Source: a virus
Lineage: Duplodnaviria; Heunggongvirae; Uroviricota; Caudoviricetes
Virus record (IMG/VR): IMGVR_UViG_3300028653_000011
Length of the DNA: 64,000 nt
Strand: one strand, 5' to 3'
Positions 10,005-63,463 of the stretch are shown piece after piece. The position numbers were made by a program, and so were the translations under genes. The notes below the pieces were generated by a model. The model did no database searches. It was not told where the DNA came from and worked only from the letters and a program-made list of their open reading frames with translations. Each line of letters opens with the position of its first letter. Within the stretch, counting starts at the first letter, position 1.

Positions 10005-10041
10005 GTGATAGTGTGCTCCTGTCCGTTATAAGGTAAGTACC

Positions 10042-10736: not shown

Positions 10737-10776
10737 TGTGCCTGTAACTTTGGTGTGCGTGGCATACTTATCAGCG

Positions 10777-11817: not shown

Positions 11818-11847
11818 TCGGTGTAGGATTACCTGAGGAGCACTCAC

Positions 11848-12168: not shown

Positions 12169-12208
12169 TAGAGTGACCAAGTGTGCGGTGACGGTATAGA
12201 GTGACCGC

Positions 12209-39475: not shown

Positions 39476-39700
39476 GTGCAGCCCGGTGAATTGGTCGTCA
39501 AGCGCGTCAGGTGGAGCGTGGACGCCGAGTGCATGGGGTTTGTCGTCGCCCACGCCGCCGGTGATGTCGATGAGTGTTTGGTGATGTGGACGATGGGTGA
39601 CCAACGCATCATGTTCAAGTGGCACCTGACCGACGCGTTGATGGCGGTCGACACGTCTAACGTTGCCGAAGTGAGGGGCAGATGCGACCTCGGTTCTTGA
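39476..39700 (+). CDS. PGD-family small protein
   Basis: QPGELVVKRV ... GFVVAHA ... CLVMWTMGD. Confidence 0.45.
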   Translation: MQPGELVVKRVRWSVDAECMGFVVAHAAGDVDECLVMWTMGDQRIMFKWHLTDALMAVDTSNVAEVRGRCDLGS

Positions 39701-43179: not shown

Positions 43180-43180
43180 A

Positions 43181-43375
43181 ATGCAGGGTAAGGTCGAAGA
43201 GTGCATGCCGGGCACGCTGTTCCGGGTGCGCTGCGACAACGGGCACCTCGTCCTGTGTACCTTGAGCGGCAAGTTGAGGCAGAACCGCATCAGAATACTG
43301 GCCGGTGACGCGGTGACGTGCGAGTGCAGTCCGTATGATGTCTCGAGGGGTCGCATCACCTGGAGACGTACGTAA
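43181..43375 (+). CDS. infA: translation initiation factor IF-1 (bacterial type, S1-like fold)
   Basis: MQGKVEECMPGTLFRVRCDNGHLVLCTLSGKLRQNRIRILAGDAVTCECSPYDVSRGRITWR is collinear with E. coli IF1. An in-frame N-terminal extension to 43070 is possible. Confidence 0.85.
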   Translation: MQGKVEECMPGTLFRVRCDNGHLVLCTLSGKLRQNRIRILAGDAVTCECSPYDVSRGRITWRRT

Positions 43376-46894: not shown

Positions 46895-46911
46895 TCTACC
46901 TTTAATATACT

Positions 46912-47202
46912 CTAGTTGACGTCATACTTCGATGCAGGCCAAGCCACGTCCTTGGCGACATCGATGCCCCGTGACGAATTGTCGGCGTAGGTAGGATCGA
47001 AGATCAGCACCTTGAGTGACTTAGGTAGTTCGGGACGTGCACTCACCGCGTACGTCGCTGCGATGGCCACGGGAGGTAGTTGCGGTGGCGCTTCGGGCGA
47101 TGCATCCGCGAAATTACCGATGAATTGGGCCAACTTCGGAAAGTCAGCGAGGTACAACCAGACCTGAAGCTTGTCGATGATTCGTCTTAGCATGGAATCC
47201 AT
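46912..47202 (-). CDS. hypothetical protein
   Basis: 96-aa ORF. Confidence 0.4.
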   Translation of the reverse strand: MDSMLRRIIDKLQVWLYLADFPKLAQFIGNFADASPEAPPQLPPVAIAATYAVSARPELPKSLKVLIFDPTYADNSSRGIDVAKDVAWPASKYDVN

Positions 47203-48415: not shown

Positions 48416-48628
48416 GTGAGCGTCCACTATGCTCACGTCGATGCCCGCGACATCAGGCCAGGGGACCTGCTGTTCGACCTGCAGGCACAACACCTACCAA
48501 GCATCGGTAGTATGCTGACGACGCGCGTTGCACAGTGCCTGTTGCTGGTGATTGGCAACCTGGAGTTAGAGGCACCAGACGTTCGCAAGGGTGCTACTTC
48601 TTGGTCGTCAACAATAGCGGGCAGGTGA
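48416..48628 (+). CDS. PGD-family small protein
   Basis: IRPGDLLFDLQAQH ... CLLLVIGNLE. Confidence 0.4.
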   Translation: MSVHYAHVDARDIRPGDLLFDLQAQHLPSIGSMLTTRVAQCLLLVIGNLELEAPDVRKGATSWSSTIAGR

Positions 48629-49633: not shown

Positions 49634-49900
49634 TCACTCGGTGACGATCCGCCTGATCCAACCCAACGAACCCGTGTGCCAGATCACCGTGGGCCCGGGT
49701 CCCAGCAACTGATACATGTACCAGCCACCCACCGTTGCCATCTTATAGTCACGCGCCAACAGCAACCACGGTACCGCCCGATCGATGCCGGCGTTCGGAT
49801 CTATGGAGAAGATGGTCCACCCATCGCCGTTCGGATTGGCGATAAAGAAGAAGAATGTCCCAACCTCGATGTTAGCGGGGGAAAATTCACGATCACGCAT
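49634..49900 (-). CDS. hypothetical protein
   Basis: 88-aa ORF with C-terminal GSLGWIRRIV. Confidence 0.4.
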   Translation of the reverse strand: MRDREFSPANIEVGTFFFFIANPNGDGWTIFSIDPNAGIDRAVPWLLLARDYKMATVGGWYMYQLLGPGPTVIWHTGSLGWIRRIVTE

Positions 49901-50120
49901 TGAATGCCATCATTGTTGACTTGCACTCATAGTCGGTGTAGTGACGTAGTTTACACTCGTCAGTGAAGACCGTGACGGTAGCCTTTGCGAGGTTGCCCAC
50001 AGATCTGTCAGTGAACGGCTCAACACCGATGACCAGCGCGGTGATCCACTCGATGTTGGAGGCAGAGCTCTGCAAGCTCTGCAACATGTCGCCCGGTTTC
50101 AGGTTCTTTGCCGACCTCAC
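49893..50120 (-). CDS. PGD-family small protein
   Basis: LKPGDMLQSLQSS ... ALVIGVEP. Confidence 0.4.
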   Translation of the reverse strand: MRSAKNLKPGDMLQSLQSSASNIEWITALVIGVEPFTDRSVGNLAKATVTVFTDECKLRHYTDYECKSTMMAFNA

Positions 50121-50329
50121 TTGACAACCTCACACCATGTGCCGATATAGGCGTAACTATATGCCTCAACCTTGCCATTGTCAACCACAATGGTCACCCT
50201 ATCATCAAAACTATTGACGTCAGGGTCATCGGGCACCGCAATGACGAAGGCGAAGTGCCATGGCACCAAGTCGCCTTTACCACGGTAGTGTATCCGACGC
50301 AGGAGATTACCTGGCACGGGCAGCATCAT
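50117..50329 (-). CDS. PGD-family small protein
   Basis: PVPGNLLRRIHYRG ... AFVIAVPDD. Confidence 0.4.
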   Translation of the reverse strand: MMLPVPGNLLRRIHYRGKGDLVPWHFAFVIAVPDDPDVNSFDDRVTIVVDNGKVEAYSYAYIGTWCEVVK

Positions 50330-51005: not shown

Positions 51006-51353
51006 TCACCGCGTGTAAGGGTGTGTAAGGGTGTGTAAGGGTGTGTAAGGGTGTGTAAGGCCGAGGAAGTCTGCGGGCACTTGAAGCGCCGCGGCGAGCT
51101 TGCGTCTAAACACGTTCACATCATCATCGTCGAACAGCATGGGCATGCGTGACCACAGCACCTTCACCTGCTCGACACCATCGTCGTCATTGACCACGGC
51201 ACTGACCACGACACCCAAGGAAGTATGGCGAAAGCTAACGTCACAGACGAGGTCACCGGGACGGGGTTGCCACGCCAGCCGCTCGAACTCGTTTACCTGT
51301 TGTCGACGATCGACGTGAACTATCAACGTCGTCCACGTGGTTGCCAGCTTCAC
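51006..51353 (-). CDS. PGD-family small protein with C-terminal LTHPYTP repeats
   Basis: PRPGDLVCDVSF ... GVVVSAVV ... VKVLWSRMP. Its 3' end is encoded by the 10-bp tandem repeat. Confidence 0.45.
   Translation of the reverse strand: MKLATTWTTLIVHVDRRQQVNEFERLAWQPRPGDLVCDVSFRHTSLGVVVSAVVNDDDGVEQVKVLWSRMPMLFDDDDVNVFRRKLAAALQVPADFLGLTHPYTPLHTLTHPYTR
51010..51060. repeat. tandem repeat, 10-bp unit GTGTAAGGGT, about 5 copies
   Basis: gtgtaagggtgtgtaagggtgtgtaagggtgtgtaagggtgtgtaagg. The unit contains the GTGTAAG -35-like heptamer. Confidence 0.85.
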
Positions 51354-51362
51354 TGCATCACC

Positions 51363-51782
51363 CTATACCACGTCACACACAAGTTCAGCGCACTCCAACT
51401 CACCGTCATTGATCCAGAACAGCTTGCCCTGTCTCAGGCAGACGTGCCACCGCTTAGGGACGCGCCCGCATCCGTCGTCGCCCGCAATGGGCATGAACTG
51501 TGGCACGGGCACTTCATGTGGACCCACGTCATCGGTGCTGACGATGACAAAGGTGTCGCCCGTCGTCATCGACAAGGTGGTGTATTTGTATGAGAAGCCT
51601 CGCTCGACCAGGCGAAAGGGCCACCAACCGCGCGCGACGCCGCAGGTGAATGTCCACATCCACAATTGACAGGGCTTTACGACCACAACACCCAGACATA
51701 ATACGACGGGTATCGTGCGCGGGAAGGTGGGCGCCCAATGACGAGGCCCAAGCGCCTTGGGATCAACTCCGTGGATCGACAC
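51363..51782 (-). CDS. PGD-family-like protein (true start possibly the internal Met at 51569)
   Basis: MTTGDTFVIVSTDD ... WHVCLRQGKLFWINDGEL. Confidence 0.3.
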   Translation of the reverse strand: MSIHGVDPKALGPRHWAPTFPRTIPVVLCLGVVVVKPCQLWMWTFTCGVARGWWPFRLVERGFSYKYTTLSMTTGDTFVIVSTDDVGPHEVPVPQFMPIAGDDGCGRVPKRWHVCLRQGKLFWINDGELECAELVCDVV

Positions 51783-51864: not shown

Positions 51865-52623
51865 TCACCTCTTCGAGCACGTCAGCACCTCACAGCCGTC
51901 GTCGGTGATCAACACCGTGTGCTCAAACTGTGCACTCCAACCCTTGTCGTAAGTCCGCACTGTCCAGCCGTCGGCCTCCACGTAGACGTCACGCGCTCCC
52001 AAGCACAGGATGGGTTCGATGGTGAAGACATCACCCACCTTCAGCACCGTCTGGTCGCCGCAGGCCCAGTGATTGACGTGTGGCTTGGTGTGGAACAGGG
52101 TGCCGATGCCGTGACCACCGAACTCACGCACCACGGTGCAGCCCCCTGCCCTTGCCAGTGGTTCAATCGCTTGGCCAATCGCACCCAACCTCACCCCGGG
52201 CCCGACAATGCCCACCGCCGTTTCCAACGCCAGCCGGGTCAGTTCCACCAATCGCCGTGCGTCGGGTGACGGGGTGCCCACGTAGAAGGTGGCGCTGCAA
52301 TCGCCGAAGTGGCCGTCAAGGATCGTCGTCACGTCGATGTTGATGATGTCGCCGTCGCATAGGACGAGTGCACCTGGGATGCCGTGACAGACGACGTCAT
52401 TGACGCTGGTGCAGACGCTGCGCGGGAAGCCGTGGTAGTTGAGCGGTGCCGGGATGCCGCCCCGCGCGACGGTGTGATCGTGGACAAAGTCGTTGAGGGC
52501 GGCCGTCGTCGAGCCCGGGCGAACGATGGCACCCGCCGCCTGCAGCGTGTCCGCCGCCGAGGCACATGCCTTACGCATCTTGCTTAGGTCGAAGGACTGC
52601 ACCTCTCTAACATATTCAATCAC
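51865..52623 (-). CDS. map: methionine aminopeptidase, type I
   Basis: Collinear with bacterial MAP. Metal ligands in DGDIINIDV, GHGIG, EP context. 252 aa. Confidence 0.9.
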   Translation of the reverse strand: MIEYVREVQSFDLSKMRKACASAADTLQAAGAIVRPGSTTAALNDFVHDHTVARGGIPAPLNYHGFPRSVCTSVNDVVCHGIPGALVLCDGDIINIDVTTILDGHFGDCSATFYVGTPSPDARRLVELTRLALETAVGIVGPGVRLGAIGQAIEPLARAGGCTVVREFGGHGIGTLFHTKPHVNHWACGDQTVLKVGDVFTIEPILCLGARDVYVEADGWTVRTYDKGWSAQFEHTVLITDDGCEVLTCSKR

Positions 52624-52629: not shown

Positions 52630-52929
52630 CTATACATCATCATCCTGTACCTGAGCAAACCGCGGTGATGAGATGACATTGGTGTATTCGGTCCGAACCC
52701 AACCCCATTTCACCTGAGCACCATGGGTGCCGATGATCCAGACCAACACCCAGTCCAAGTGCCGGTTGATGCCGATTACAAGAGCGCTGGTGCCGCCCGG
52801 CGCTCCGCCAATGTGAGCGCGCACGGCGGGCTTGGTATAAAGCAACGCGTAGCCATTGAACACGACGACATCACCAGGTAGCGCCCGTCGCCCGTGAAAA
52901 TGTAGACGGAGGCGCTTGGTGAACGTCAC
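52630..52929 (-). CDS. PGD-family small protein (array 1, member 1)
   Basis: ALPGDVVVFNGY ... ALVIGINR ... WVLVWIIG ... WGWV. Confidence 0.5.
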   Translation of the reverse strand: MTFTKRLRLHFHGRRALPGDVVVFNGYALLYTKPAVRAHIGGAPGGTSALVIGINRHLDWVLVWIIGTHGAQVKWGWVRTEYTNVISSPRFAQVQDDDV

Positions 52930-53159
52930 GTCGGCACCAATATGATGCCGCGTTCAACGATCCAACCCAGCGTATTGCCCCACAACGCGTAGACAAAACC
53001 GTCTCGGTGAGCGATGACGACGCCCATGACGCTTGGCTCAACGTGGCCCACACAGTCGTTAACGCCCACATCGACCGACGCCCACACGGCCACCTTGAGA
53101 GAGGTCCAACGTGCGTCGAGTTGCACGAAGTCGCCGGGTAACCATTCGTGATCTATCAT
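52926..53159 (-). CDS. PGD-family small protein (array 1, member 2)
   Basis: WLPGDFVQLD ... GVVIAHRDG ... YALWGNTLGWIV. ATGA-coupled. Confidence 0.5.
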   Translation of the reverse strand: MIDHEWLPGDFVQLDARWTSLKVAVWASVDVGVNDCVGHVEPSVMGVVIAHRDGFVYALWGNTLGWIVERGIILVPT

Positions 53160-53395
53160 ACGGGCGCCACGACGGTGTTGTCAACCCATGCCATGATGGC
53201 CAACTCCGACCAAAAGACACAGACGAGGAACTGGTCACATTGGCCGATGACGAGGCCCAACGCCCCCGCGGTGGGACGACCTACACGATCGTGATTGGTG
53301 ACATCGTTGGAGGCCCACAGTGAAAAGATGTTGTTGCGTGGCAATGGCACCACCTTGACAAGGACACCGGGTAGTAACAGTGACCCGTTGTTCAC
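53156..53395 (-). CDS. PGD-family small protein (array 1, member 3)
   Basis: LLPGVLVKVV ... GLVIGQCD ... VFWSELAIMAWV. Confidence 0.5.
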   Translation of the reverse strand: MNNGSLLLPGVLVKVVPLPRNNIFSLWASNDVTNHDRVGRPTAGALGLVIGQCDQFLVCVFWSELAIMAWVDNTVVAPV

Positions 53396-53658
53396 GGCAA
53401 GAACCTCAACTCATCATTGAACAGCCAACCCACCTGGTCATCAACGAGGCACAGCGAATAGCATGTGCCCTTATTTTTCGGTGACTCTATGGCAATGACC
53501 AGCGCTACCATGTGATTTTTAGCCGCGATGCCCCGACCGTTCCACCATGCTTGGCGTTCATCGAGGTTCTCATAGAGCGCAGCACCCGGTCGCACGCCAT
53601 ATAACTTCCCCGGCCTTGTGGTGAGGCGTGAGTAATGTGACCTAGTCATCTTCACCAT
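53392..53658 (-). CDS. PGD-family small protein (array 1, member 4)
   Basis: RPGAALYENL ... ALVIAIES ... CLVDDQVGWLF. Confidence 0.45.
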   Translation of the reverse strand: MVKMTRSHYSRLTTRPGKLYGVRPGAALYENLDERQAWWNGRGIAAKNHMVALVIAIESPKNKGTCYSLCLVDDQVGWLFNDELRFLP

Positions 53659-53662
53659 TGCA

Positions 53663-53908
53663 TCACACCTTACGCAGGTAGCCGTCCGACACGTAGCCCA
53701 ACACCGACGGCATTGACCACAACACGTAGGTGTAGTCCCGCCGACGATTGATGACGAGGCCTAGGCCACCCGGCATCACCACGCCTAGGCGACTGCGCAC
53801 GACGAGGAGCTCGCCGGCGCTAACGGAGCTCCATACCGAAACGGGCTCATCACCGCGAACCAACACGATGTCACCGGGTGCGGGTGGCCTGTCGATGTAA
53901 CTCATCAC
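53663..53908 (-). CDS. PGD-family small protein (array 1, member 5)
   Basis: PAPGDIVLVRGD ... GLVINRRRD ... YVLWSMPSVLGYV. Confidence 0.5.
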   Translation of the reverse strand: MMSYIDRPPAPGDIVLVRGDEPVSVWSSVSAGELLVVRSRLGVVMPGGLGLVINRRRDYTYVLWSMPSVLGYVSDGYLRKV

Positions 53909-53936
53909 GAAGTGCTTTCGGACTGAGTGTAGCTCA

Positions 53937-54248
53937 TTACTTGACCCTCACCAAGAACTTGACCAGCGTCCAGCCCTTTTTCATTGATGCACTGTCAAAG
54001 ACAAACGCCCATGCAACGTCTTTTTCATGTCGCCCGTCGACATCGGTGATGGTTCGCTCTGCCAACAATAATCCGAACTTGAATGTCCCGGTCGCTGACA
54101 CCATGCGAGGTACAAACACCGACGGCAATGGTTGATCCCACGTACCATGACCACCCACGTGTACGCTCCTCACCAGGTCACCCGTACGTAGTAACTTGCG
54201 GCCCATCAGTGCCTTCCGACGACGCGAAGGGCCGAGCCCCAGACCCAT
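53937..54248 (-). CDS. PGD-family small protein (array 1, member 6; possible internal start at 54206)
   Basis: LRTGDLVRSVHVGG ... FGLLLAER ... WAFVFDSASMKKGWTLV. Confidence 0.45.
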   Translation of the reverse strand: MGLGLGPSRRRKALMGRKLLRTGDLVRSVHVGGHGTWDQPLPSVFVPRMVSATGTFKFGLLLAERTITDVDGRHEKDVAWAFVFDSASMKKGWTLVKFLVRVK

Positions 54249-54544
54249 TTAATCCGCGGCTTACTGGTGTTCACTAGCACCAAGGTGGGATGCGAGGTGT
54301 AATCGGAATAAAGGCTCGGTACGGCGATCACCGCGAGGACGAGGGCATGCTTCTCGACGAACATTAAGGCACCTTCAATAAGCCCCGTCAAGAGGGCACG
54401 CGCTGGCACTTCCGTACCAAACACCGTGACTTGTCGACCCGGGATGGGATTCAGCCTCACATCGTCCCACAGCGCCACGGGGTGTTTACACGCGACGATG
54501 TCACCGGGCCTAATGTCGATCACGTGTTTGATGACATCGATCAC
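54206..54544 (-). CDS. PGD-family small protein (array 1, member 7)
   Basis: IRPGDIVACKHP ... LVLAVIAV ... IKWVWGSAL. Confidence 0.5.
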   Translation of the reverse strand: MIDVIKHVIDIRPGDIVACKHPVALWDDVRLNPIPGRQVTVFGTEVPARALLTGLIEGALMFVEKHALVLAVIAVPSLYSDYTSHPTLVLVNTSKPRIKWVWGSALRVVGRH

Positions 54545-54816
54545 GGCGCGGCCTCGATGCTCTCGAGCAGCACCCAGCCCAGCTTGCCGTCGTCATACAA
54601 CACGTAGACGACGGTGTCACCACCCTTCTTGTGCATGGTGATGACCAGCGCCTTGGCATTGAGGCGACCCTGCAACCCACCGGCGAACAGGTTGCTGTCG
54701 TCACCACCGTTGATGTGACTAAAGATGATGCGCGGCATGTAGGGCACGGGCACCACCAGGTCGCCGGGCTTGATGCAGGCATCAGGCGACCATTGGTCAG
54801 CTTTGGCGTCGATCAT
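54541..54816 (-). CDS. PGD-family small protein (array 1, member 8)
   Basis: IKPGDLVVPVPY ... ALVITMHKK ... YVLYDDGKLGWVL. Confidence 0.5.
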   Translation of the reverse strand: MIDAKADQWSPDACIKPGDLVVPVPYMPRIIFSHINGGDDSNLFAGGLQGRLNAKALVITMHKKGGDTVVYVLYDDGKLGWVLLESIEAAP

Positions 54817-55199
54817 GGCACTTTCTTCAGGTCAGCTGCCCACATATAGCCAACCTCGCCACCGAGGAGTACGAGCACCAAGCCCAGATTGGCTCCATTC
54901 CATGGAGCACCTAACCCGCATCGGGAAATGACGAAGATCAACCTCCCGTCGATTGGTACGGACCTCACACAATCACCCAAGATGAATGCATCTTCGCCTA
55001 GGTCCTGGTTGGTGTCGGGATCACGTAGTCGGACACGTTCAATGCTCGGGCTAAAGGCTCCAGGTTGGCCGCGCGACCCCATCGTCACCCAATCACCGTG
55101 ATCAAATTGAGTGCGGAGGGTGTACATCGGTTCTTCACGATTGTAAGGCCCATGACGTGGGCCTTTGCTACGGTACATGACGACTTGGGACGGCATCAC
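54813..55199 (-). CDS. PGD-family-like protein (array 1, member 9, divergent)
   Basis: ILGDCVRSVPIDG ... LIFVISR ... LGLVLVLLGGEVGYMW. Confidence 0.4.
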   Translation of the reverse strand: MMPSQVVMYRSKGPRHGPYNREEPMYTLRTQFDHGDWVTMGSRGQPGAFSPSIERVRLRDPDTNQDLGEDAFILGDCVRSVPIDGRLIFVISRCGLGAPWNGANLGLVLVLLGGEVGYMWAADLKKVP

Positions 55200-55519
55200 C
55201 GCGATCCTAGGCGATCATCCCACCAACCGTCGTTGTACGAGCCACCGTCGGGCCCGCCGGGCCGCATCGAACCCGGCGTGATGCCATGGCCACAGTCGGT
55301 GAAGCGGTGCAGGCGTTCCCACTGGTTGCCGTTGTTGACGAAGACGCCGACGACGACGCAGTCCTGCCCGTGGAGCGAGAACTCGGCCTCAACGCGCAGG
55401 GTGACGTTGGCACCCGTCGCGCGGGGCGGGTCGGGCGGAGCAGGCGCCGGCGTACGTACGAGAAAGCTGGCGAGTACAATTCCAGCTAAGCCCAGGCCAC
55501 TGATCCACAGCCCGTGCAT
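55196..55519 (-). CDS. membrane-anchored beta-rich protein
   Basis: Internal ATG at 55519. Signal-anchor LWISGLGLAGIVLASFLV. The upstream R-rich extension looks spurious. Confidence 0.4.
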   Translation of the reverse strand: MHGLWISGLGLAGIVLASFLVRTPAPAPPDPPRATGANVTLRVEAEFSLHGQDCVVVGVFVNNGNQWERLHRFTDCGHGITPGSMRPGGPDGGSYNDGWWDDRLGSR

Positions 55520-55634
55520 GATGGTGTTGTATGCCTTCACTTTGACACCTCTCTCCGCAACCCCCACCCGCGTACCACGCACGTGAAGATGAGGCTTCCG
55601 ACCACGGCGGGCGCCAGTGTTGCCAACCACGGGA

Positions 55635-55922
55635 TCACGCGGGCACCATGGGAGGCGGGGGCGACGTCGGACAGGTGTTCGGGTTCGACGCCTCGCACAG
55701 TACATCGCGCTCGGGCAGGGTGTACTCCGTCGTCACCTCATCCCAAGTGTCCTCGGGCACCAATTCTTGGCCCGTCGGAGTGGTGACGATCGACAGCATG
55801 TCACTGTCTATGTCAATGTCGACCGACGATGGTAGCTTACCACGCACGCTCCTGAAGGGTTCATCGAGCTGATTGATGTCAACCATCGGCGTCTCCTCGG
55901 GTGCGGGGTACCAAGTATTCAT
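55635..55922 (-). CDS. acidic hypothetical protein
   Basis: 95 aa, D/E-rich. Confidence 0.35.
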   Translation of the reverse strand: MNTWYPAPEETPMVDINQLDEPFRSVRGKLPSSVDIDIDSDMLSIVTTPTGQELVPEDTWDEVTTEYTLPERDVLCEASNPNTCPTSPPPPMVPA

Positions 55923-56118
55923 CGAGGCTGACGCCGTCCTTCAATGCCCACACGATGCAGTTCGGGCAGGCCTCAATGACCTTGCTGGTGGCGTAGAAGG
56001 TGATGGCGCGGGCAGCGTCCTTGAAGACGAAGTCTTTCGTCTCGATGTCACGGCCACAATAGGCACGACCGCTATAGCGTTGAATGCAGGCCTGCGGCGT
56101 CTTGTGAGGTGTGGTCAT
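55879..56118 (-). CDS. small Cys-containing protein
   Basis: C..C ... CPNC. 79 aa. Confidence 0.35.
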   Translation of the reverse strand: MTTPHKTPQACIQRYSGRAYCGRDIETKDFVFKDAARAITFYATSKVIEACPNCIVWALKDGVSLDEYLVPRTRGDADG

Positions 56119-56405
56119 GTGACAGCCGCCGACCGATTGCGCAGCGCCTCGAGCTCCCCTAGGTCATATGACCCGGTGTTATCGACGTCGGTGTCGCGGA
56201 CTGTCACCGCCGCATGCTCGGCAGTTGGGTGCGCCTGCATGAAGAGCCGTGCTGCCTCGCGGCGTCCATCGCGGACTTGGTTGGTCAGCAGCTTGCTCAG
56301 CGATTGTGCCAGCGGCTCGCCGTTGGTGTCCAGCGACATCGGATCGACGCCGGCTTGAAACAACCAGAGGTGGCTCATGGCCAGGTGACGGCGTTCAGCG
56401 CTCAT
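56115..56405 (-). CDS. small protein, SHLW paralog 1
   Basis: GGAGG 8 nt upstream. RRHLAMSHLWLFQAGVD, paralogous to 57596-57868. Confidence 0.4.
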   Translation of the reverse strand: MSAERRHLAMSHLWLFQAGVDPMSLDTNGEPLAQSLSKLLTNQVRDGRREAARLFMQAHPTAEHAAVTVRDTDVDNTGSYDLGELEALRNRSAAVT

Positions 56406-56658
56406 CGGAGACCTCCGGGTCTGCATTGGTGTCGTCATCGACGCCATCGTTGGTGTGGTGGCGCTGCTCCTTGCGGGGGTATTCGCCGTTCTCGTCGGGC
56501 AGTTGAAACTTGATGTAGGTCGGTGCGCTGTCGGCACCCTCTTCGGGGATGTTGGAGACGCAGATGACCTTGATCGGGCCCATGTTGAAGGAGAAACTCA
56601 ACGTCTCGGTACCCCGACGCGTCGGCCTGATGACATTGTTGACAACGATCTGTTTCAT
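56395..56658 (-). CDS. small hypothetical protein
   Basis: 87 aa with acidic C-terminus. Confidence 0.35.
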   Translation of the reverse strand: MKQIVVNNVIRPTRRGTETLSFSFNMGPIKVICVSNIPEEGADSAPTYIKFQLPDENGEYPRKEQRHHTNDGVDDDTNADPEVSDER

Positions 56659-57191
56659 GTTGCACGTCCTTTCTTGGCGGCCTTTTCGGCCTCAATCACT
56701 GCCTTGGGTCGATTTTTGGTGCCCTTCGGGCGCCCTTTTCCTCGTTTGCCGGGTTGTGGCACAGTTGGCTGCACCTTCACTTCGGTGACGATGAAGGGAC
56801 TGCCCTTCGCCGGCGCCAACTTGAAGCACGCCAGTCCGTCCTTGAACGAGGCCCACCGTGCCCGCGGCGACCTGAAGTCGGAGTCCTCATCGTACAGCGA
56901 CACCATGCCGGTGTCATCATCGATCGACCTGACGCGGCCGACGATCGTCTCCAACCACGGCAGGCCCTTCAACAGGGAGGTGCGGGTGTCGACGACGATG
57001 CGATCACCGACGTCGAACAGGACGACTGACGAGCCGTCGCCTAACACGGCGATGCCGTCCTTCAGGTGCTCGATGGGAGGGCGCTTCGACTGCCAGCGCT
57101 GGTGGCGTTCGGCGCGGGATAGACCCACGTCGGCATCGGGTTTTGAATCGTCAGCATCGCCGAGCGACCCTGACACAGGGGTCTCATTCAT
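56655..57191 (-). CDS. AT-hook DNA-binding protein
   Basis: C-terminus PQPGKRGKGRPKGTKNRPK. AAGGAG SD. Conserved promoter-like element just upstream. Confidence 0.5.
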   Translation of the reverse strand: MNETPVSGSLGDADDSKPDADVGLSRAERHQRWQSKRPPIEHLKDGIAVLGDGSSVVLFDVGDRIVVDTRTSLLKGLPWLETIVGRVRSIDDDTGMVSLYDEDSDFRSPRARWASFKDGLACFKLAPAKGSPFIVTEVKVQPTVPQPGKRGKGRPKGTKNRPKAVIEAEKAAKKGRAT

Positions 57192-57222
57192 TGCAATCTC
57201 CTTCGCAGCAGTTCCAACCTAT

Positions 57223-57258
57223 GATCTAACTGTACCACGGACGTGACCGAACTTACAC
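57223..57258 (-). promoter_or_regulatory. bipartite promoter-like element, copy 1 (GTGTAAG-N17-TACAGTTAGATC), reading leftwards
   Basis: Minus-strand sequence GTGTAAG ttcggtcacgtccgtgg TACAGTTAGATC, about 30 nt upstream of the SD of gene 56655-57191. Confidence 0.4.
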
Positions 57259-57444
57259 CCAGGAGTTGACGAGCGAACGTTCGAAGTGAGTCAGCATCCA
57301 CGTAGCATCCAGCACCTTGACCAAGTTGGCAGGGTCTTTCACCCCGTATGCTTGCCTCTTGACGCCATTGGGGAGCGTGAACTCGACCCGGTTGGTCGTG
57401 GGATCAATGACGGTAAAAGTTGTCGTTGCTGCTCTCTTCACCAT
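57253..57444 (-). CDS. small hypothetical protein
   Basis: 63 aa. Its ATG directly abuts copy 2 of the promoter-like element. Confidence 0.4.
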   Translation of the reverse strand: MVKRAATTTFTVIDPTTNRVEFTLPNGVKRQAYGVKDPANLVKVLDATWMLTHFERSLVNSWV

Positions 57445-57480
57445 GATCTAACTCTACCACGGTTCACCAGGGACTTACAC
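57445..57480 (-). promoter_or_regulatory. bipartite promoter-like element, copy 2 (GTGTAAG-N17-TAGAGTTAGATC), with upstream palindrome
   Basis: Minus strand GTGTAAG tccctggtgaaccgtgg TAGAGTTAGATC then ATG. Adjacent palindrome GAATTATAC-TCGAG-GTGTAATTC at 57488-57510. Confidence 0.45.
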
Positions 57481-57595
57481 CGTCCACGAATTATACTCGA
57501 GGTGTAATTCCTCGGGCCGCCCATGTGGGCGAGGTATGATACCCCGTCCCAGCACCCGTGACGACACGGTGGGCGGTCTGTGGGTGGTGGTTCCG

Positions 57596-57868
57596 TCACC
57601 AGGTGGGCCTGGCATACTGTCGGGTGGGCATGTCATCCCAGTCGTCCGGGGCACCCACGGGATGCGTGGTCGAACGTGACAGGACGTCACGGGAGACGCT
57701 TGGTGCGTTCCTGACGGCGTCTCTTCGCGCATCGTCGAGGAGGATCGCCAGTGAACCCGCGATGGCGGTGACTTCGGCCTCTGACTTGCCGTCATCGAGG
57801 CCCGTCTGGTAGATCCACAGGTGGGACAGCGCAAGGGTGCGAACATCGTGACGATTGTTCTTCATCAT
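57596..57868 (-). CDS. small protein, SHLW paralog 2
   Basis: MMKNNRHDVRTLALSHLWIYQTGLDD. A degenerate copy of the promoter element lies at 57869-57905. Confidence 0.4.
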   Translation of the reverse strand: MMKNNRHDVRTLALSHLWIYQTGLDDGKSEAEVTAIAGSLAILLDDARRDAVRNAPSVSRDVLSRSTTHPVGAPDDWDDMPTRQYARPTW

Positions 57869-57934
57869 GAATGTACAGTACCACACTTGACCACGGCGCT
57901 TGCACTCTGCGCGGGAGGGTGGTACAATTGAAGC

Positions 57935-58126
57935 ATGAGAACCACGTTGATCACATTCGTGGCACTCGTCATCACGTGTGTCATCGTCTCGTATGCCTGT
58001 GTCTACTCGCCGCCCAATTCCCTGCCCAACGGACACTCGCGGTGCGAGTACAACGCTGATTGTAGGCCACCCCAACAGTGTGACAGGGGCCTGTGTACCC
58101 TCGAACCCCATGACGTGGGGCGCTGA
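57935..58126 (+). CDS. small secreted Cys-rich protein
   Basis: Signal-anchor ITFVALVITCVIVSYA plus 6 Cys. GTGGTACAATTGAAGC (plus-orientation -10-like copy) immediately upstream. Confidence 0.4.
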   Translation: MRTTLITFVALVITCVIVSYACVYSPPNSLPNGHSRCEYNADCRPPQQCDRGLCTLEPHDVGR

Positions 58127-58517
58127 TCACGTGCGCTCACTGAAGTGCGGGGGCGTTGACGTCTACGTAGACAGCTATTACACCCGTGGCACAGGCAGCA
58201 CCTTCATCGGTGGTAACTTCTCGCTCGACAGTGCGATTGACTATGCTCGCCGCTCGCTTGAACTCCTATGGGGACCCAATCGTCACAGCGTCGTGGTGCC
58301 GCCCAAGGTGACAGCAGGCGGGCGCATTCCACAGCGCACGTTGATGATGTGGCTGCACTCCGACGAGCGGCCCATGGAACACCCAGGCGACGATGGATCA
58401 CACCTGTTCCTCATCTGGTTTGCTGACGATGATCCCATCGATGCACTGCAGGACGCGGTGCGGCACCTCGATGGCATGGGTGGCTGGTGGCCACACGCGA
58501 AGGGTTACGTGCTATGA
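58110..58517 (+). CDS. hypothetical protein
   Basis: Internal ATG of track ORF 57978-58517, overlapping the upstream stop. 135 aa. Confidence 0.4.
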   Translation: MTWGADHVRSLKCGGVDVYVDSYYTRGTGSTFIGGNFSLDSAIDYARRSLELLWGPNRHSVVVPPKVTAGGRIPQRTLMMWLHSDERPMEHPGDDGSHLFLIWFADDDPIDALQDAVRHLDGMGGWWPHAKGYVL

Positions 58518-58708
58518 GCACCGGCGATAGGTTGAGACAACTGGCGATGGCGTGGCGCAAACAAGTGGCTAGCGATGCGTTGAGTCACGTGGGTAGCAAT
58601 AGCGAGATCCGCCGGGCGAGGGGCGAACGCCTGCTGATGTGCGCAGGCGAACTTGAGGCGCTGGCGAGAGAAGTCGACAAGGCAGTCACGTCAACCGATT
58701 GCTCCTGA
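58514..58708 (+). CDS. small hypothetical protein
   Basis: ATGA-coupled. 64 aa. Confidence 0.3.
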   Translation: MSTGDRLRQLAMAWRKQVASDALSHVGSNSEIRRARGERLLMCAGELEALAREVDKAVTSTDCS

Positions 58709-58961
58709 TGTAGCAGGTGCGGCCTACACACACGATCTGGCAATACGAGTGGTGTACCCCCGACATGGTGATGACTGCCAACACTAGCGCTAGTTCACCA
58801 TTGCACCACACGCTGCGCGCCACGACTCCCGCGCCGTATCCTACAGTATAGAACGGAAACGGGCGGGTGTAGCCCCAGCCCTTGGCCACGTACAGTTCCC
58901 CGGGTTTGCGGATCAAGTCAACGTCAGGGGTATTGAGTTCAGTGGGCATGCACGTCCTCAA
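58686..58961 (-). CDS. PGD-family small protein (array 2, member 1)
   Basis: RKPGELYVAKGWGY ... GVVARSV ... LALVLAVI. Confidence 0.4.
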   Translation of the reverse strand: MRTCMPTELNTPDVDLIRKPGELYVAKGWGYTRPFPFYTVGYGAGVVARSVWCNGELALVLAVITMSGVHHSYCQIVCVGRTCYIRSNRLT

Positions 58962-59247
58962 AGAATTGGTGATAGCCCCAACCCAGCTTGCCTGTCGGTG
59001 TCAACACCAACACCTCGAGCGTGCCATTGGAGTTCACCGCGACGGCGACAGCTAACACCACTTTGAGTGGCTCTATGCGATCGATGATTGGGTTGGCACT
59101 GAGTGCAGAGATGCCTATGCGCGCGCTGACGTTGACATAAGAGTCCTGATCAGGCAACCTGCTGCGTATGCGAACCAGCATGCCTGGGAGAATGCGGCCA
59201 TGCGGCGCCATCACCTCACCAACCACTTCAACACCCCGATGTACCAT
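58939..59247 (-). CDS. PGD-family small protein (array 2, member 2)
   Basis: Internal ATG. ILPGMLVRIRS ... VVLAVAVAV ... VLVLTPTGKLGWGY. Confidence 0.45.
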   Translation of the reverse strand: MVHRGVEVVGEVMAPHGRILPGMLVRIRSRLPDQDSYVNVSARIGISALSANPIIDRIEPLKVVLAVAVAVNSNGTLEVLVLTPTGKLGWGYHQFFEDVHAH

Positions 59248-59516
59248 GCTTGGCGAAAGTCGCAGGTCCAGTACCAGTAGGGGCTGGTGCACCCGCCGCC
59301 CAAGTATTCTCGACCGTGACCCATAATTTTGCCGCGCCCGTCCTTGACCCATGACTCATTGCTGGTGAGGGTGCGGTCACATGCCGGGCACGTCAATTCT
59401 GTGTTGATGAAGTACGTCATCTCTGCACCGTGCGCACGTTCTTGCTCCATACCCAACCCAGCGTGTTCTTCGACGTCAAGATCAACACTTCTTCCGGCGG
59501 GATGCGAGGCTGACAA
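59211..59516 (-). CDS. small Cys-rich protein (zinc-ribbon-like)
   Basis: CPACDRT ... GGGCTSPYWYWTCD. 101 aa. Confidence 0.35.
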   Translation of the reverse strand: MSASHPAGRSVDLDVEEHAGLGMEQERAHGAEMTYFINTELTCPACDRTLTSNESWVKDGRGKIMGHGREYLGGGCTSPYWYWTCDFRQAWYIGVLKWLVR

Positions 59517-59683
59517 ACGTTGATGACGAGCGCGATGTCACTTGCGTGCAGGAAGCCGACGCCAAGATTGTCCTCCGTTCGCATGCCCGGATACTGCGTC
59601 ATGCAACACCGATAGTCGTAGTCATACCCAACCAGCAGGGTGACGAGTGAGCCGGGCGTGATCACGGGCGGTGAAGGTTGCAC
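59417..59683 (-). CDS. PGD-family small protein (array 2, member 3)
   Basis: ITPGSLVTLLVG ... ALVINVCQ ... LILTSKNTLGWVW. Confidence 0.5.
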   Translation of the reverse strand: MQPSPPVITPGSLVTLLVGYDYDYRCCMTQYPGMRTEDNLGVGFLHASDIALVINVCQPRIPPEEVLILTSKNTLGWVWSKNVRTVQR

Positions 59684-59976
59684 TGATCACGGGGAATGTC
59701 GCAGTTGCAATTGCCGGGAGCGACGCGCCGCCTGAACAGCTTCCAGATGCGCTCCTCCTCGTGATCGACCTGTGGTTCACCCACCACGACGGCGAGCTCA
59801 ACGTTCTCAATTGGTTCACCATCGATGATTTCAAAGCGATTGCGATTCCAATACCCAGGCACGTCGACGAGCGTGTAGACGCGCGTGGCACCATCATCTT
59901 CGAGGACGCTGTAGACGTGACCCTCGGTCAGCTTGTCGGAGGCCAACCCACTGACATCAATGCACTTGACCTTCAT
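59662..59976 (-). CDS. small hypothetical protein (possibly a distant family member)
   Basis: 104 aa. HVYSVLEDDG ... VYTLVDVPGYW. Confidence 0.35.
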   Translation of the reverse strand: MKVKCIDVSGLASDKLTEGHVYSVLEDDGATRVYTLVDVPGYWNRNRFEIIDGEPIENVELAVVVGEPQVDHEEERIWKLFRRRVAPGNCNCDIPRDQCNLHRP

Positions 59977-60013
59977 GGTTCAATCCTATGCCAATTGCAG
60001 GGCACTTTGCACC

Positions 60014-60292
60014 TCACACCGGACACAACTTGCGCGCATCGATCCACCCCAAGATCCCACCCACCATGACCAGCGTTTCAGGACGCCATGCTACGTCTGG
60101 CTCAACGTAGATGATGAAGGCAACATCGATGTCTGGTAACATTTCGTAGAGAACAGGATTGTCGCCGTGAACCACGCCCCTTTTCGGAGTGACGCGTTTG
60201 ATGCCCTCCGTTCGGCTAGTGACAAAGGTGCCGGGCACAAGGCGAGTAGTGCTCATTTCGACACCACGTTGAGCCATGATTGACTCATCCAA
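60014..60292 (-). CDS. PGD-family small protein (array 2, member 5)
   Basis: LVPGTFVTSRT ... AFIIYVEPD ... LVMVGGILGWI. Confidence 0.5.
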   Translation of the reverse strand: MDESIMAQRGVEMSTTRLVPGTFVTSRTEGIKRVTPKRGVVHGDNPVLYEMLPDIDVAFIIYVEPDVAWRPETLVMVGGILGWIDARKLCPV

Positions 60293-60546
60293 CCTACCCT
60301 GTTCAACGCTGACACGTAGACGATGACCTCGAGAGTATATGAGTCCGACGCACCTAGAATGAGCACCAACGAGCCGAGCGCGATCGCCGTGGGGATGTTA
60401 CCGTAATCACTGTCACTGATCGTGCCACGTGGCCACAACTGACACCACACGCGCGTCACTGCTAGTTGGCCGATCAACGCGACGGATACAGTGTTCACCG
60501 GCGCTCCAAGTGCTCGACGCGTTGAATCACCGACGTGTAGATCCAA
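60253..60546 (-). CDS. PGD-family small protein (array 2, member 6)
   Basis: ALGSLVLILGAS ... EVIVYVSALNRVGWM. Confidence 0.45.
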   Translation of the reverse strand: MDLHVGDSTRRALGAPVNTVSVALIGQLAVTRVWCQLWPRGTISDSDYGNIPTAIALGSLVLILGASDSYTLEVIVYVSALNRVGWMSQSWLNVVSK

Positions 60547-60752
60547 CCCACCGCGCTAGTTAGTGACTCAATGACCTGTGCCCGTCGGTCGCCGCCGGTA
60601 TCGAACGTAATCGCAATGACAAGACCAAAGTTGAAGTCACACAGGCGTCGTCTATGTCCCATATCACCATAGACGCCCGGACGCCAAGAAGACGCGTGAA
60701 GTGATGTCGGGTACCAGATCAGGTCACCAGGATGGAAAATGCGGGTCACCAC
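60495..60752 (-). CDS. PGD-family small protein (array 2, member 7)
   Basis: FHPGDLIWYPTS ... GLVIAITFD ... VIESLTSAVGWIY. Confidence 0.5.
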   Translation of the reverse strand: MVTRIFHPGDLIWYPTSLHASSWRPGVYGDMGHRRRLCDFNFGLVIAITFDTGGDRRAQVIESLTSAVGWIYTSVIQRVEHLERR

Positions 60753-60756
60753 AATC

Positions 60757-61074
60757 TTATCCTACACCGACAACTATTTCGGTTACACCGTGCCAGTGGG
60801 TGCCACGTCCCATCACCTCTTCACTGATTTCGTGAATGTACAGACGACCGCGCATTAATAGGATCAATTCGATTACGTCGTCGGACCGCAATCTTCGCCT
60901 GCTGATGATCATGGCAAGGGTGTCTGCGTTGAACACCGTGAACCTGCCCAGCGTGAAGTGATTGAGAGGTCGATTATCAACGAGTCGTGCATGCATCATC
61001 GTCAGGGAAGTGATGAGGTCACCCGGTTCAAACTTCATGGGGTGATCACCTTGATGAAGGTGCTGTTGATCCAA
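60757..61074 (-). CDS. PGD-family small protein (array 2, member 8)
   Basis: FEPGDLITSLTMM ... LAMIISRR ... ELILLMRGRLYI. Confidence 0.5.
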   Translation of the reverse strand: MDQQHLHQGDHPMKFEPGDLITSLTMMHARLVDNRPLNHFTLGRFTVFNADTLAMIISRRRLRSDDVIELILLMRGRLYIHEISEEVMGRGTHWHGVTEIVVGVG

Positions 61075-61340
61075 CCCATGCCCTGCGCGGTGACGATGAA
61101 GACATAATGTCCCATCACCGTCGCCATAACTGTGCTAGCGACGATTCCGACGTAGAGCGAATCAATGTACGTGTAATGACTGTCGTACACGTGGCCGGAT
61201 ACATCCGTATGAACGATGATGCACACGTCGCCCGGATAGTATGCGTGTCCCATGATGCGCGGGGGCAGTGCCGTCCACGAATAACCTGGGTGCCTGAAGG
61301 TCACCAGCGCGCCCGGTGTGGCCTGAGCGGGGGTGATCAT
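61035..61340 (-). CDS. PGD-family small protein (array 2, member 9)
   Basis: Internal ATG with ATGA overlap. ATPGALVTFRHPG ... VCIIVHTD ... FIVTAQGMGWI. Confidence 0.45.
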   Translation of the reverse strand: MITPAQATPGALVTFRHPGYSWTALPPRIMGHAYYPGDVCIIVHTDVSGHVYDSHYTYIDSLYVGIVASTVMATVMGHYVFIVTAQGMGWINSTFIKVITP

Positions 61341-61609
61341 GCGCGCACCAGGTCGGTGGGAAACACCCACCCCACGCGATGGCCGAGCAAGACACAGATC
61401 CATTGAGTGCCTGGTGAAAAGATGTGGGATACGTCCTTCACGTAATTGATGACGAGGCACCGTTTACCACGGCGATACCATCGGAGGCCACTACTATTTT
61501 CCCCGGGATGAGTGATCCTGACTGCAACATCCTCGCCGTGTCGCCGCGCGTGCGACGACCCATGGAGGCAACACAGCGTCCCGGGCAGGAATTGCTCCTC
61601 ATGGGTCAT
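61337..61609 (-). CDS. PGD-family small protein (array 2, member 10)
   Basis: FLPGTLCCLHGS ... CLVINYVKD ... ICVLLGHRVGWVF. Confidence 0.5.
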   Translation of the reverse strand: MTHEEQFLPGTLCCLHGSSHARRHGEDVAVRITHPGENSSGLRWYRRGKRCLVINYVKDVSHIFSPGTQWICVLLGHRVGWVFPTDLVRA

Positions 61610-61662
61610 CGAGTTCTTTTCATCCTATCACACCATGGCGTCGACTTGCACGGTACACTCAA

Positions 61663-61938
61663 TCAGAGCGGTTCCAGGTCAGTAAGAAAGACCCAACCCA
61701 GCGAGGCATCGGCAAATAACAAGCAGACCCATCTCGTGGATGACAGGCCAAACCGCCAACTGTTGATGACCAGACACACCACGCCAGCAGCATACCAGAC
61801 GACGACGCGTTCCATCGGCAGGCCTTGGTGGGTGCCCAGATCGGGGTGCACGATCCGAACGGCAATCTTGTCACCATAGTCTCTTCGGAGGCACGCTAGT
61901 GTGCCGGGCAGCAACTTCTCCTCGTTGGTCATTGTCAT
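61663..61938 (-). CDS. PGD-family small protein (array 2, member 11; close paralog of member 10)
   Basis: Internal ATG with ATGA overlap. LLPGTLACLRRD ... CLVINSWRF ... VCLLFADASLGWVF. Confidence 0.5.
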   Translation of the reverse strand: MTMTNEEKLLPGTLACLRRDYGDKIAVRIVHPDLGTHQGLPMERVVVWYAAGVVCLVINSWRFGLSSTRWVCLLFADASLGWVFLTDLEPL

Positions 61939-62150
61939 CTGTTTTCGAGGAAGTACACTGAAACCCAAACCAAGCGCTCCGCGTGCAGGACGAGAACATA
62001 GTCCAGGAGGGCGTCCCATTGCTGAACAATGAGGCACGCGTCACCTGCCTCGTGTGCGTGTCCCAGCGCCAACGTCTTGCGATCTTTCCACCCAATCCAC
62101 GCGTGCATGAAGACTGCCAGCATTCCGGGAATGACGTCATGCGGCGTCAT
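61935..62150 (-). CDS. PGD-family small protein (array 2, member 12)
   Basis: VIPGMLAVFMHA ... ACLIVQQWD ... LVLHAERLVWV. Confidence 0.5.
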   Translation of the reverse strand: MTPHDVIPGMLAVFMHAWIGWKDRKTLALGHAHEAGDACLIVQQWDALLDYVLVLHAERLVWVSVYFLENR

Positions 62151-62422
62151 GCCAACACCAAGTCACTGTCGAAGATCCACCCAACAATGCCGTCTGACGT
62201 TAGCACACAGATCCACCAGATGTTGGCTGACCACACGTAGTCAATGATCAAACCAGCAGTGCCACACCGGGCATATATCACCAGTGATGGTACCTCATCT
62301 TTGGGGTGCCTAGTGCGGATGCTGACCGTTACCAACTTCCTCTTATTGTAGAGAAAGATCAACGTCCCACGTGCATGGATCGTAGGCTGCACAAAGGGTG
62401 CTGGGGTTGGTGTGGAGATCAT
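62147..62422 (-). CDS. PGD-family small protein (array 2, member 13)
   Basis: ARGTLIFLYNK ... GLIIDYVWS ... ICVLTSDGIVGWIF. Confidence 0.5.
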   Translation of the reverse strand: MISTPTPAPFVQPTIHARGTLIFLYNKRKLVTVSIRTRHPKDEVPSLVIYARCGTAGLIIDYVWSANIWWICVLTSDGIVGWIFDSDLVLA

Positions 62423-62694
62423 GGAACATCACTCGTCTTCGCTATGCGAACGGCGCGGAAGATCGCTCCGATCACGTGGCTGCCTTCGAGCGCGCGAGAT
62501 AACCCATTACAGTTCAACCACGTCAGGATGCCTTCGGCGCGGGCGACCAACAGGTTAACGCCACCGATGAGCACGAAGCGATGCTCGACGGATGACCATA
62601 TCTCTTCATGCGTGACAACCTCATTGCCGTTACGGGTGTACACCCACTTGATGAGGTCGCCGGGCTTCAATTCACTCGGCGTCATCAGGTGCAA
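62419..62694 (-). CDS. PGD-family small protein (array 2, member 14)
   Basis: LKPGDLIKWVYT ... FVLIGGVN ... GILTWLN. Confidence 0.5.
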   Translation of the reverse strand: MHLMTPSELKPGDLIKWVYTRNGNEVVTHEEIWSSVEHRFVLIGGVNLLVARAEGILTWLNCNGLSRALEGSHVIGAIFRAVRIAKTSDVP

Positions 62695-63463
62695 CCCAAT
62701 CCTGACCCTTGGTGAATGAACCGCGGTTCTCGATGCCCGTCTTGGTCAAGGCGACGACGAACGTTTTCCCGCTACAACCCCACCTGTTCTTGCTGACCTC
62801 GAACAACAGGCCCCCAAACGTCGGGCTCTTCTTGTTCTCGTCGTACGACAGGTGGGCATGGACGTCGATGGCGTGGCGGATGGTGTTCTTGCCCGCGAAT
62901 TCTCCACCCTTGGTACATTGTCCCACGAAGATGCAGAAGGCGAAGTTCTGCTGGCACCAGGCGACCAACATCTCAGTGCAGCGCACCGGGGTGTTGCCCG
63001 TCGTCCCACCGTCCTTGTACTTCATGTCGTTCAACGTCTGCAGTGAATCTTGCAGTAGGACGATGACCTTGCCCGGGTTGGCCTTCTTGACGCCGTCGAG
63101 GAACTTCAACAGCTTAGGCAGGTTAGTCTCCTCGGCGACCATGAAGTCGTGCTTCAACTGCAACCGTTCAACGGCCAGCTTGGCCTGAAACAGGCTCTCT
63201 TCGCCCGTGTTGTAGACGACGATGTGACCCGCACCCGTCAGCGTCGACGCCAACTGGCGCACCAGCGTTGACTTGCCGGTGCCCGGGCCACCCGTCAGCA
63301 TCAGCGTCGTCGTCGCGGTGAAGCCACCTTCGCCGCCCAACGCCTCGTCGATCCAATCGAGGCCCGTCGAGTGCTTGACCCGCAGTTCGGGTGGCACCGC
63401 GATGGTGCTGATCTTCGTCCCAGCCTTGAAACCACGCCCAACGTGCAGATTCATCTCGGCCAT
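62672..63463 (-). CDS. RecA-superfamily ATPase (RadA/Sms- or Sak4-like)
   Basis: GLDWIDEALGGEGGF ... LMLTGGPGTGKSTL (Walker A), with a Walker B-like hydrophobic stretch ending in D. Confidence 0.6.
   Translation of the reverse strand: MAEMNLHVGRGFKAGTKISTIAVPPELRVKHSTGLDWIDEALGGEGGFTATTTLMLTGGPGTGKSTLVRQLASTLTGAGHIVVYNTGEESLFQAKLAVERLQLKHDFMVAEETNLPKLLKFLDGVKKANPGKVIVLLQDSLQTLNDMKYKDGGTTGNTPVRCTEMLVAWCQQNFAFCIFVGQCTKGGEFAGKNTIRHAIDVHAHLSYDENKKSPTFGGLLFEVSKNRWGCSGKTFVVALTKTGIENRGSFTKGQDWVAPDDAE

Follow-up and report, generated by a model that had tools for sequence, protein, structure and literature searches.

Tandem arrays of small, predicted SH3b-like proteins in an uncultivated phage-like genome of about 359 kb

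What is encoded by long chains of small genes that overlap one another, resemble each other only faintly and match nothing in the annotation libraries? The question is raised by IMG/VR virus record IMGVR_UViG_3300028653_000011, of which a stretch of 64,000 nucleotides was analysed (the whole stretch is called the window below). Two chains of short open reading frames (ORFs) lie on its minus strand, at 52630-55199 (nine ORFs) and at 58686-62694. An earlier interpretation made from the letters alone, here called the sequence-only reading, described both chains, and they are present as described; it also took them for a large lineage-specific tandem expansion of one small-protein family, and this is borne out by profile membership and by the array layout in related contigs. 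The answer proposed here is that the genes form a real family with a predicted SH3b fold, organised in tandem arrays, and that they supply a repertoire of intracellular binding proteins. Taken as a whole, we lean modestly towards this statement, and the doubt lies mostly on the function.

Pairwise searches connect few of the members, and most pairs have no detectable similarity. The family becomes visible with profile hidden Markov models (HMMs), which were run against the 670 ORFs of 40 amino acids or more in the six frames of the window. The HMM built from the nine ORFs of array 1 has five array-2 ORFs as its only non-self matches (E 1.4e-5 to 4e-3), and the array-2 HMM in turn matches four array-1 ORFs plus 10494(+) and 40265(-). 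The arrays therefore find each other, as the sequence-only reading had suggested checking, and none of about 640 off-frame control ORFs appears in either match list. Using leave-one-out profiles, 18 ORFs score above the best non-member, including seven of array 1 and nine of array 2. Profiles with external homologues, which did not contain the doubtful ORFs, recover nine more (58939, 60757, 58686, 54813, 53937, 62419, 50326, 39476 and 51677). In the final deep profile, 27 window ORFs at E ≤ 0.017 stand ahead of the first non-family match, the gene for translation initiation factor IF-1 at E 0.069; they comprise all nine ORFs of array 1, 13 of the 14 in array 2 and five dispersed ones. The coding signal, another check proposed earlier, is equally clear: in a codon-usage model trained on 18 long window genes, the ORF's own frame is the best of the six in 24 of 24 array ORFs. 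The same small genes are called by the Joint Genome Institute (JGI) gene callers on independent assemblies.

Since the motifs are short and most pairs lack detectable similarity, the pattern might be dismissed as something that short ORFs in GC-rich DNA produce by chance or through their composition. This explanation is refuted and retains practically no credence: the arrays detect each other without a single off-frame match, the frame test is clean, a common fold is confidently predicted (see below), and an exhaustive HMMER search of 1.8 billion protein representatives returns 128 proteins at E ≤ 1e-3. A broken polyprotein, or frameshifts caused by sequencing errors, was likewise rejected. 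Over the region of interest the window agrees with independent assemblies at 99.97-100% identity, and no unit lacks a start codon of its own or a complete domain.

The number of copies needs some care. The sequence-only reading counted at least 35 members in 64 kb, which is too many; profile statistics give 27, plus about 10 that fall below threshold. These short PGD-type ORFs, which lie at 39.7-42.2 and 48.4-51.6 kb, have the PGD-hydrophobic start and the aliphatic strand and rank high among the sub-threshold matches, and their sole link to the family is an hhalign comparison of the set that gives 82% over just 32 columns. They are possibly truncated relatives whose membership is below the profile threshold. 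Five dispersed copies are retrieved by the HMMs, and these are not. Array 2 had been given about 14 members, of which 13 are supported; the ORF at 59662-59976 was rejected, with a leave-one-out E of 55 and no place in the deep-profile lists. An apparent 137-amino-acid ORF at 58939-59352 turns out to be a 90-amino-acid member (58939-59211) plus a separate gene of 69 amino acids (59211-59420) that matches neither the family profile nor Pfam. Finally, the two arrays described are both real, but a third of about 15 members lies past the end of the window. The whole genome then has no fewer than 42 copies, 27 of them in the window and about 15 in the third array, and 37 lie inside 17 kb.

What fold do these proteins have? 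The members are single-domain proteins of 70-130 amino acids, and the sequence-only reading had guessed a small KOW/SH3-like barrel. Structures were predicted with AlphaFold2 for one member per array. Using an alignment of 105 members, the set to which the residue and Pfam statistics below also refer, the array-1 member 53663-53905 is modelled as seven strands with a predicted local distance difference test score (pLDDT) of 91.4 and a predicted template modelling score of 0.78; the array-2 member 59417 reaches a pLDDT of 74.6 and has the same barrel. The guess was therefore right in kind for both arrays, but the evidence favours a barrel of the SH3b type over KOW. The closest structural counterparts are SH3b domains found in a phage endolysin and in NlpC/P60 hydrolases, and for the confident model (53663) these matches are clearly stronger than those to KOW domains.

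Profile comparisons point in the same direction. Aligned by hhalign to 17 Pfam-confirmed SH3_3 repeats, the family alignment (A3) gives 94.3% probability and E 1e-7 over 54 of 62 columns, with the caveat that these repeats come from proteins already matched by the family profile. In the exhaustive search the family profile matches multi-repeat SH3_3 and GW-domain lysins (identified with Pfam), and in one of these, P0022, the match to the GW repeats covers profile positions 62-84 only. A sequence-profile search of the PDB lists the repeat-containing amidase 4epc first (E 1e-3), followed more weakly by SH3 domains and the autolysin 4krt (E 0.2-0.9). The Pfam models themselves see very little. 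SH3_3 (PF08239) matches just 5 of the 105 members (best E 1.2e-4), its gathering score of 27 bits is reached by none, and among the 18 core window members there is no match at E ≤ 1. GW (PF13457) matches one member at E 0.03; KOW (PF00467) matches none, with a single KOWx_SPT5 match at E 0.068. Scans of the members against Pfam, PHROGs, NCBIfam and PADLOC give nothing above threshold, and no described defence or anti-defence family is matched in PHROGs or in PADLOC, the latter of which covers defence systems only. The hhalign result and the lack of a KOW match in Pfam together argue for the SH3b/SH3_3 type rather than KOW.

It is worth considering here whether the proteins could be small nucleic-acid-binding barrels that tune transcription, translation or RNA stability, in the manner of KOW/LSm-type phage early proteins. 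In T4-like phages, a KOW domain is predicted in the early protein MotB (PMC7827196) and an LSm-like fold in GoF, MotB.1 and Frd.2 (PMC12152347). Compared by description, these are likewise small phage-specific SH3-/Sm-like barrels with poorly known intracellular roles, encoded in accessory regions. However, they occur in one to three copies and not in arrays, and the barrel subtype of the present family is SH3b. With structural matches that favour SH3b in the confident model, no KOW match beyond the marginal one above, and a charge that is not uniform among members (the isoelectric point of seven is below 6.5), a nucleic-acid-binding role is unlikely.

On these sequence and model grounds the family is best regarded as a divergent branch of the bacterial SH3 superfamily, made up of free-standing proteins with an extra P-G-D strand at the N-terminus. 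Bacterial SH3 domains (SH3_3 and relatives such as SH3b and GW) serve endolysins and NlpC/P60 hydrolases as cell-wall-binding modules. SH3_3 domains are usually found in exported proteins, typically fused to a cell-wall hydrolase domain. The present proteins share with SH3_3 the SH3b-type beta barrel and a remote profile homology, but they stand alone, have neither signal peptide nor catalytic partner domain, carry the extra strand and score below the Pfam cut-offs; moreover, they are dozens of divergent tandem genes and not repeats within one secreted protein. Because they fall below the SH3_3 cut-off and lack the usual context, they are not filed here as ordinary SH3_3 domains.

How widely is the family distributed? 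The 128 proteins found by the exhaustive search consist of the phage's own members, about 90 small metagenomic proteins of the same pattern, three fused two-domain forms (P0016, P0017 and P0031) and SH3_3/GW lysins. Ten of the external small proteins were looked up; all are on metagenomic contigs and are either unnamed or called 'hypothetical'. As an extreme example, contig L010 (JAXOUH010042983.1, GCA_034680565.1) has about 50 consecutive family genes within 13.6 kb (positions 1-13641, which is the part covered of a 26 kb contig), in the same overlapping layout; they include the fused P0017, and a gene of the Pfam T4_Y16D family is nearby. Thirteen members lie within 20 kb on L007, a viral contig of 72 kb, and about nine on L009, a viral contig of 369 kb; in L011 full-length and short forms are adjacent. 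Such relatives are found only by exhaustive HMMER, as a word-indexed protein search returns nothing beyond the proteins of the phage itself. When the family consensus was compared by tblastn with 50,697 deposited phage records, none matched; one orthologue group that was scanned is not found in the GTDB species-representative genomes, and no description of the family or of arrays of stand-alone SH3b-like genes was found in the literature searched or in the family libraries. Judged by these searches, the family appears to occur only in certain large uncultivated phage-like genomes.

The sequence-only reading named a few recent duplicates (61337 versus 61663). This is indeed the closest pair, but at 42% identity and with no DNA-level repeat it was rejected as a recent duplication. 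Members are 20-42% identical to one another, and a repeat search at the DNA level detects no long repeats and no recent duplications or cassettes. The lack of such repeats, together with the identity of the closest pair, indicates that the duplications are old, and the copies arose by tandem duplication followed by divergence. The region is syntenic in three related contigs (L007-L009). Within the syntenic block the two best-conserved genes are 55-60% identical, a 178-amino-acid gene at 56-60% and an aminopeptidase at 55-59%, while other small genes are at 38-42% and the family members 53663, 52630 and 53937 at 35-48%. Only three window members have recognisable orthologues in the syntenic loci (15-20 kb per related contig), and family genes nevertheless fill the corresponding stretches. 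To judge from these comparisons, the family thus seems to consist of a few retained members and a larger part with lineage-specific turnover.

Such turnover could also mean that the expansion is largely neutral, either duplication-prone filler or a multi-SH3 repeat protein that has been broken up. Multi-repeat SH3_3 proteins do exist and are matched by the family profile, fusion and fission are attested by the fused two-domain forms, and most copies have no detectable orthologue in the related phages. On the other hand, every copy has kept an unbroken reading frame that begins at its own start codon, none of the core residues is missing, and the sequences are 99.97-100% identical across independent assemblies. 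Some syntenic orthologues are kept in phages whose conserved genes are only 55-60% identical, and similar arrays persist in distant genomes. Neutral expansion is for these reasons very improbable.

The pattern of conservation leads to the function that is proposed. In the numbering of the 53663 member, conservation is at least 95% at P11, G12, G71 and W72 and in the hydrophobic core strands (the G-W dipeptide itself at 95-96%); also conserved are W26, G42 and G47, together with an L-V-I strand and a hydrophobic one at 61-64. An N-terminal strand with a near-invariant P-G-(D) turn is followed by the SH3 barrel, which ends in the near-invariant G-W. High entropy and most insertions and deletions are concentrated at positions 27-40 and 55-60, which are loops in the AlphaFold2 model, one following the conserved Trp strand and the other preceding the penultimate core strand. 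A signal peptide is lacking, the N-terminal 20 residues not being hydrophobic, and isoelectric points range from 4.7 to 10.4. From the conserved core, the two variable loops, the missing signal peptide and the varied charge we infer a repertoire of intracellular binding modules. The proteins would be soluble and act inside the infected cell, probably made together from long transcripts; the scaffold would stay fixed while the two loops vary, giving each copy a specificity for a different host or phage macromolecule, and binding would serve host takeover or the evasion of host defences. A host-takeover or anti-defence role for the family, which the sequence-only reading also raised, is plausible.

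Several observations weigh against this interpretation. In eleven members a central stretch is hydrophobic enough for its Kyte-Doolittle mean over 19 residues to exceed 1.6 (maximum 1.78); these stretches are attributed to core strands of the predicted fold, as the segments are beta strands in the two modelled members. Stop-start overlaps are shared by the unrelated inter-array genes and hence characterise the small-gene operons of this genome in general, not the family. No virion genes are seen in the 64-kb window, and the element is called a phage on indirect grounds. The family orthologues are no more divergent than nearby small accessory genes, so that an arms-race signature is not demonstrated and the unusually fast diversification suggested by the sequence-only reading is not supported. 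In addition, the closest relatives by both sequence and fold are extracellular peptidoglycan-binding modules.

This last point invites the explanation that the family supplies free modules for binding the cell wall, comparable to endolysin SH3b domains. Holin action, or an unrecognised export route, would give them access to the peptidoglycan, where they would target or modulate a lysin, with copies matched to different wall chemistries. The structural matches to endolysin and NlpC/P60 SH3b domains, the profile homology to SH3_3 and the matches to GW repeats all speak for it. There is also a precedent in staphylococcal phage 2638A, where free SH3b-containing short isoforms are reported to partner the full-length endolysin (PMC12203907). 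But the family lacks a signal peptide, no member reaches the Pfam cut-off for SH3_3 or GW, and more than 40 divergent copies go far beyond the needs of a lysis system. None of the arrays adjoins a lysin; next to them are an ATPase, an aminopeptidase and ORFans. A cell-wall role is accordingly quite unlikely, and a repertoire of intracellular binders is preferred. A more daring version of the latter, in which SH3b-derived binders neutralise or redirect different host proteins (a defence sensor or core machinery, for example) and the size and content of the array set the host range of the phage, is doubtful but may be entertained.

Stop-start overlap packing is typical of polycistronic, translationally coupled operons. 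The sequence-only reading reported ATGA coupling of most members, and four-nucleotide overlaps (ATGA or GTGA) are present at 14 of 22 junctions within the arrays, with one-nucleotide overlaps at three more, although they are not specific to the family. Scans for sigma-70 promoters and terminators show no enrichment above shuffled sequences. Array 2 is headed by a KaiC/RadA-like ATPase gene that overlaps its first family gene by 14 nucleotides; five small genes on the opposite strand separate the ATPase from the third array. In L011, two paralogues of this ATPase (L011:3409-4251 and 6515-7414; 65% and 52% identity) are found within about 6 kb of family genes, and a functional link of the ATPase to the family is possible on these positional grounds. 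The genes of the block between arrays 1 and 2 have no family match and no Pfam match. The best conserved of them is the 178-amino-acid gene at 56655-57191 (minus strand; no Pfam match), which is above any SH3-like member in this respect.

Comparable expansions are known. Bacillus phage G has about 35 copies of a zinc ribbon (Iyer et al. 2021, PMC7824862). In both cases tens of small-domain paralogues are present in a very large phage and a function in binding or regulation is proposed; here it is a tandem expansion in a phage-like genome of more than 200 kb (27 copies in the window and about 15 adjacent, in about 359 kb). The present family differs in its SH3b-like fold, in its tight overlapping tandem arrays, and in being common to a clade of uncultivated phages, with about 50 consecutive copies on one contig. 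Stand-alone ORFs of 68-101 amino acids called 'SH3 domain protein' are also listed for other phages in BFVD (annotated examples from uncultured siphoviruses, and besides them an unnamed 68-amino-acid protein of Pseudomonas phage Noxifer). These are likewise single small SH3-like proteins encoded by phages, but the structural matches are weak (Foldseek E > 1e-3) and arrays are reported for none of them. The scale of the family is striking and the family is unannotated, but such expansions are expected in giant phage genomes.

Should the copies prove to be diversified binders, the arrays would amount to a natural library of small, stable single-domain proteins against bacterial targets, from which new inhibitors of host functions or defences could be obtained. 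It would also mean that the SH3b scaffold, known for extracellular cell-wall binding, has been reused inside the cell. Regardless of function, an annotation gap is filled, as no match passes the thresholds of Pfam, PHROGs, NCBIfam or PADLOC, and over 40 genes of one genome that had been 'hypothetical' are accounted for, as are about 50 successive genes of another.

Table 1. Coordinates of the family genes, their neighbours and other features (window positions unless stated otherwise).
Feature	Position	Strand	Evidence or remark
Array 1, nine consecutive family genes	52630..55196	-	deep profile E 2.6e-15 to 4e-4
Array 1, individual genes	52630-52929, 52926-53159, 53156-53395, 53392-53658, 53663-53905, 53937-54206, 54206-54544, 54541-54816, 54813-55196
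Array 2, thirteen family genes	58686..62685	-	deep profile E 1.2e-15 to 6.3e-3
Array 2, individual genes	58686-58949, 58939-59211, 59417-59665, 60014-60277, 60253-60498, 60495-60752, 60757-61038, 61035-61340, 61337-61609, 61663-61938, 61935-62150, 62147-62422, 62419-62685
Third array, about 15 family genes	window-equivalent 65854-69851 (L012:3613-7622; L001:22-3824)		starts about 1.9 kb past the right end of the window
Dispersed member, 80 amino acids	10494..10736	+	leave-one-out E 7.5e-5; deep profile E 2.9e-11
Dispersed member, 74 amino acids, weak support	39476..39700	+	profile E 3.3e-3 and 9e-4; outside training set
Dispersed member, 87 amino acids	40265..40528	-	leave-one-out E 1.1e-3; profile E 1.5e-7
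Dispersed member, 102 amino acids	50326..50634	-	profile E 3.9e-5; outside training set
Borderline member, 67 amino acids	51677..51880	-	profile E 0.017, last match before the first non-family match
Short PGD-type ORFs	39682-39906, 39899-40258	+	sub-threshold
Short PGD-type ORFs	41052-41375, 41326-41568, 41893-42183	-	sub-threshold
Short PGD-type ORF	48416-48628	+	sub-threshold
Short PGD-type ORFs	49893-50087, 50117-50326, 51006-51353, 51363-51569	-	sub-threshold
Intercalated non-family gene, 69 amino acids, CxxC motifs	59211..59420	-	JGI call, own frame best
Intercalated gene, 104 amino acids, membership unsupported	59662..59976	-	no Pfam match
KaiC/RadA-like P-loop ATPase heading array 2	62672..63463	-	Pfam PF06745 E 7.6e-8
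Inter-array block, unrelated small genes	55196..58686	both	includes two plus-strand genes, 58110-58708
Carbon-nitrogen hydrolase	1885-2664	+	cellular-type, unusual for phage
Malate synthase	12597-14231	+	cellular-type, unusual for phage
UDP-glucose pyrophosphorylase-like protein	26288-27370	+	cellular-type, unusual for phage
Fpg/Nei DNA glycosylase	29137-29991	+	cellular-type, unusual for phage
GroEL-like chaperonin	37465-39126	+	cellular-type, unusual for phage; about 46% identity to best matches
Translation initiation factor IF-1	43070-43375	+	cellular-type, unusual for phage
Methionine aminopeptidase	51865-52623	-	cellular-type, unusual for phage

The genes of the window are carried by contigs of about 359.3 kb that were assembled from at least 10 metagenome samples with differing start coordinates (records include Ga0265319_1000002, Ga0265320_10000004 and ERZ27245402 k141_2233850). 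The ends of one of these records fall inside the window, and together with the differing start points this suggests a complete genome that is circular or circularly permuted. A megablast search of the region finds no near-identical relative among deposited phages; relatives of the region were found in IMG/VR, one of them on a 369 kb contig. Based on these relatives and a typical gene content, the element is described as a very large phage-like genome. The gene content of the window includes AAA and KaiC-like ATPases, a PHROG exonuclease and a GIY-YIG endonuclease, besides the cellular-type genes listed in Table 1, and no tRNA genes or Rfam matches are found in it. A papain-family cysteine protease (22392-23255, plus strand), a trypsin-like serine protease (28128-29003, minus strand) and an SPFH/Band 7 protein (31529-32491, plus strand) are also encoded. 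The GC content dips to 0.485 at 45267-47202, compared with about 0.58. The dip coincides with the GIY-YIG endonuclease gene (46031-46894, minus strand), which adjoins a metallophosphoesterase gene (45267-46052, minus strand), and the segment is probably a mobile homing-endonuclease insertion.

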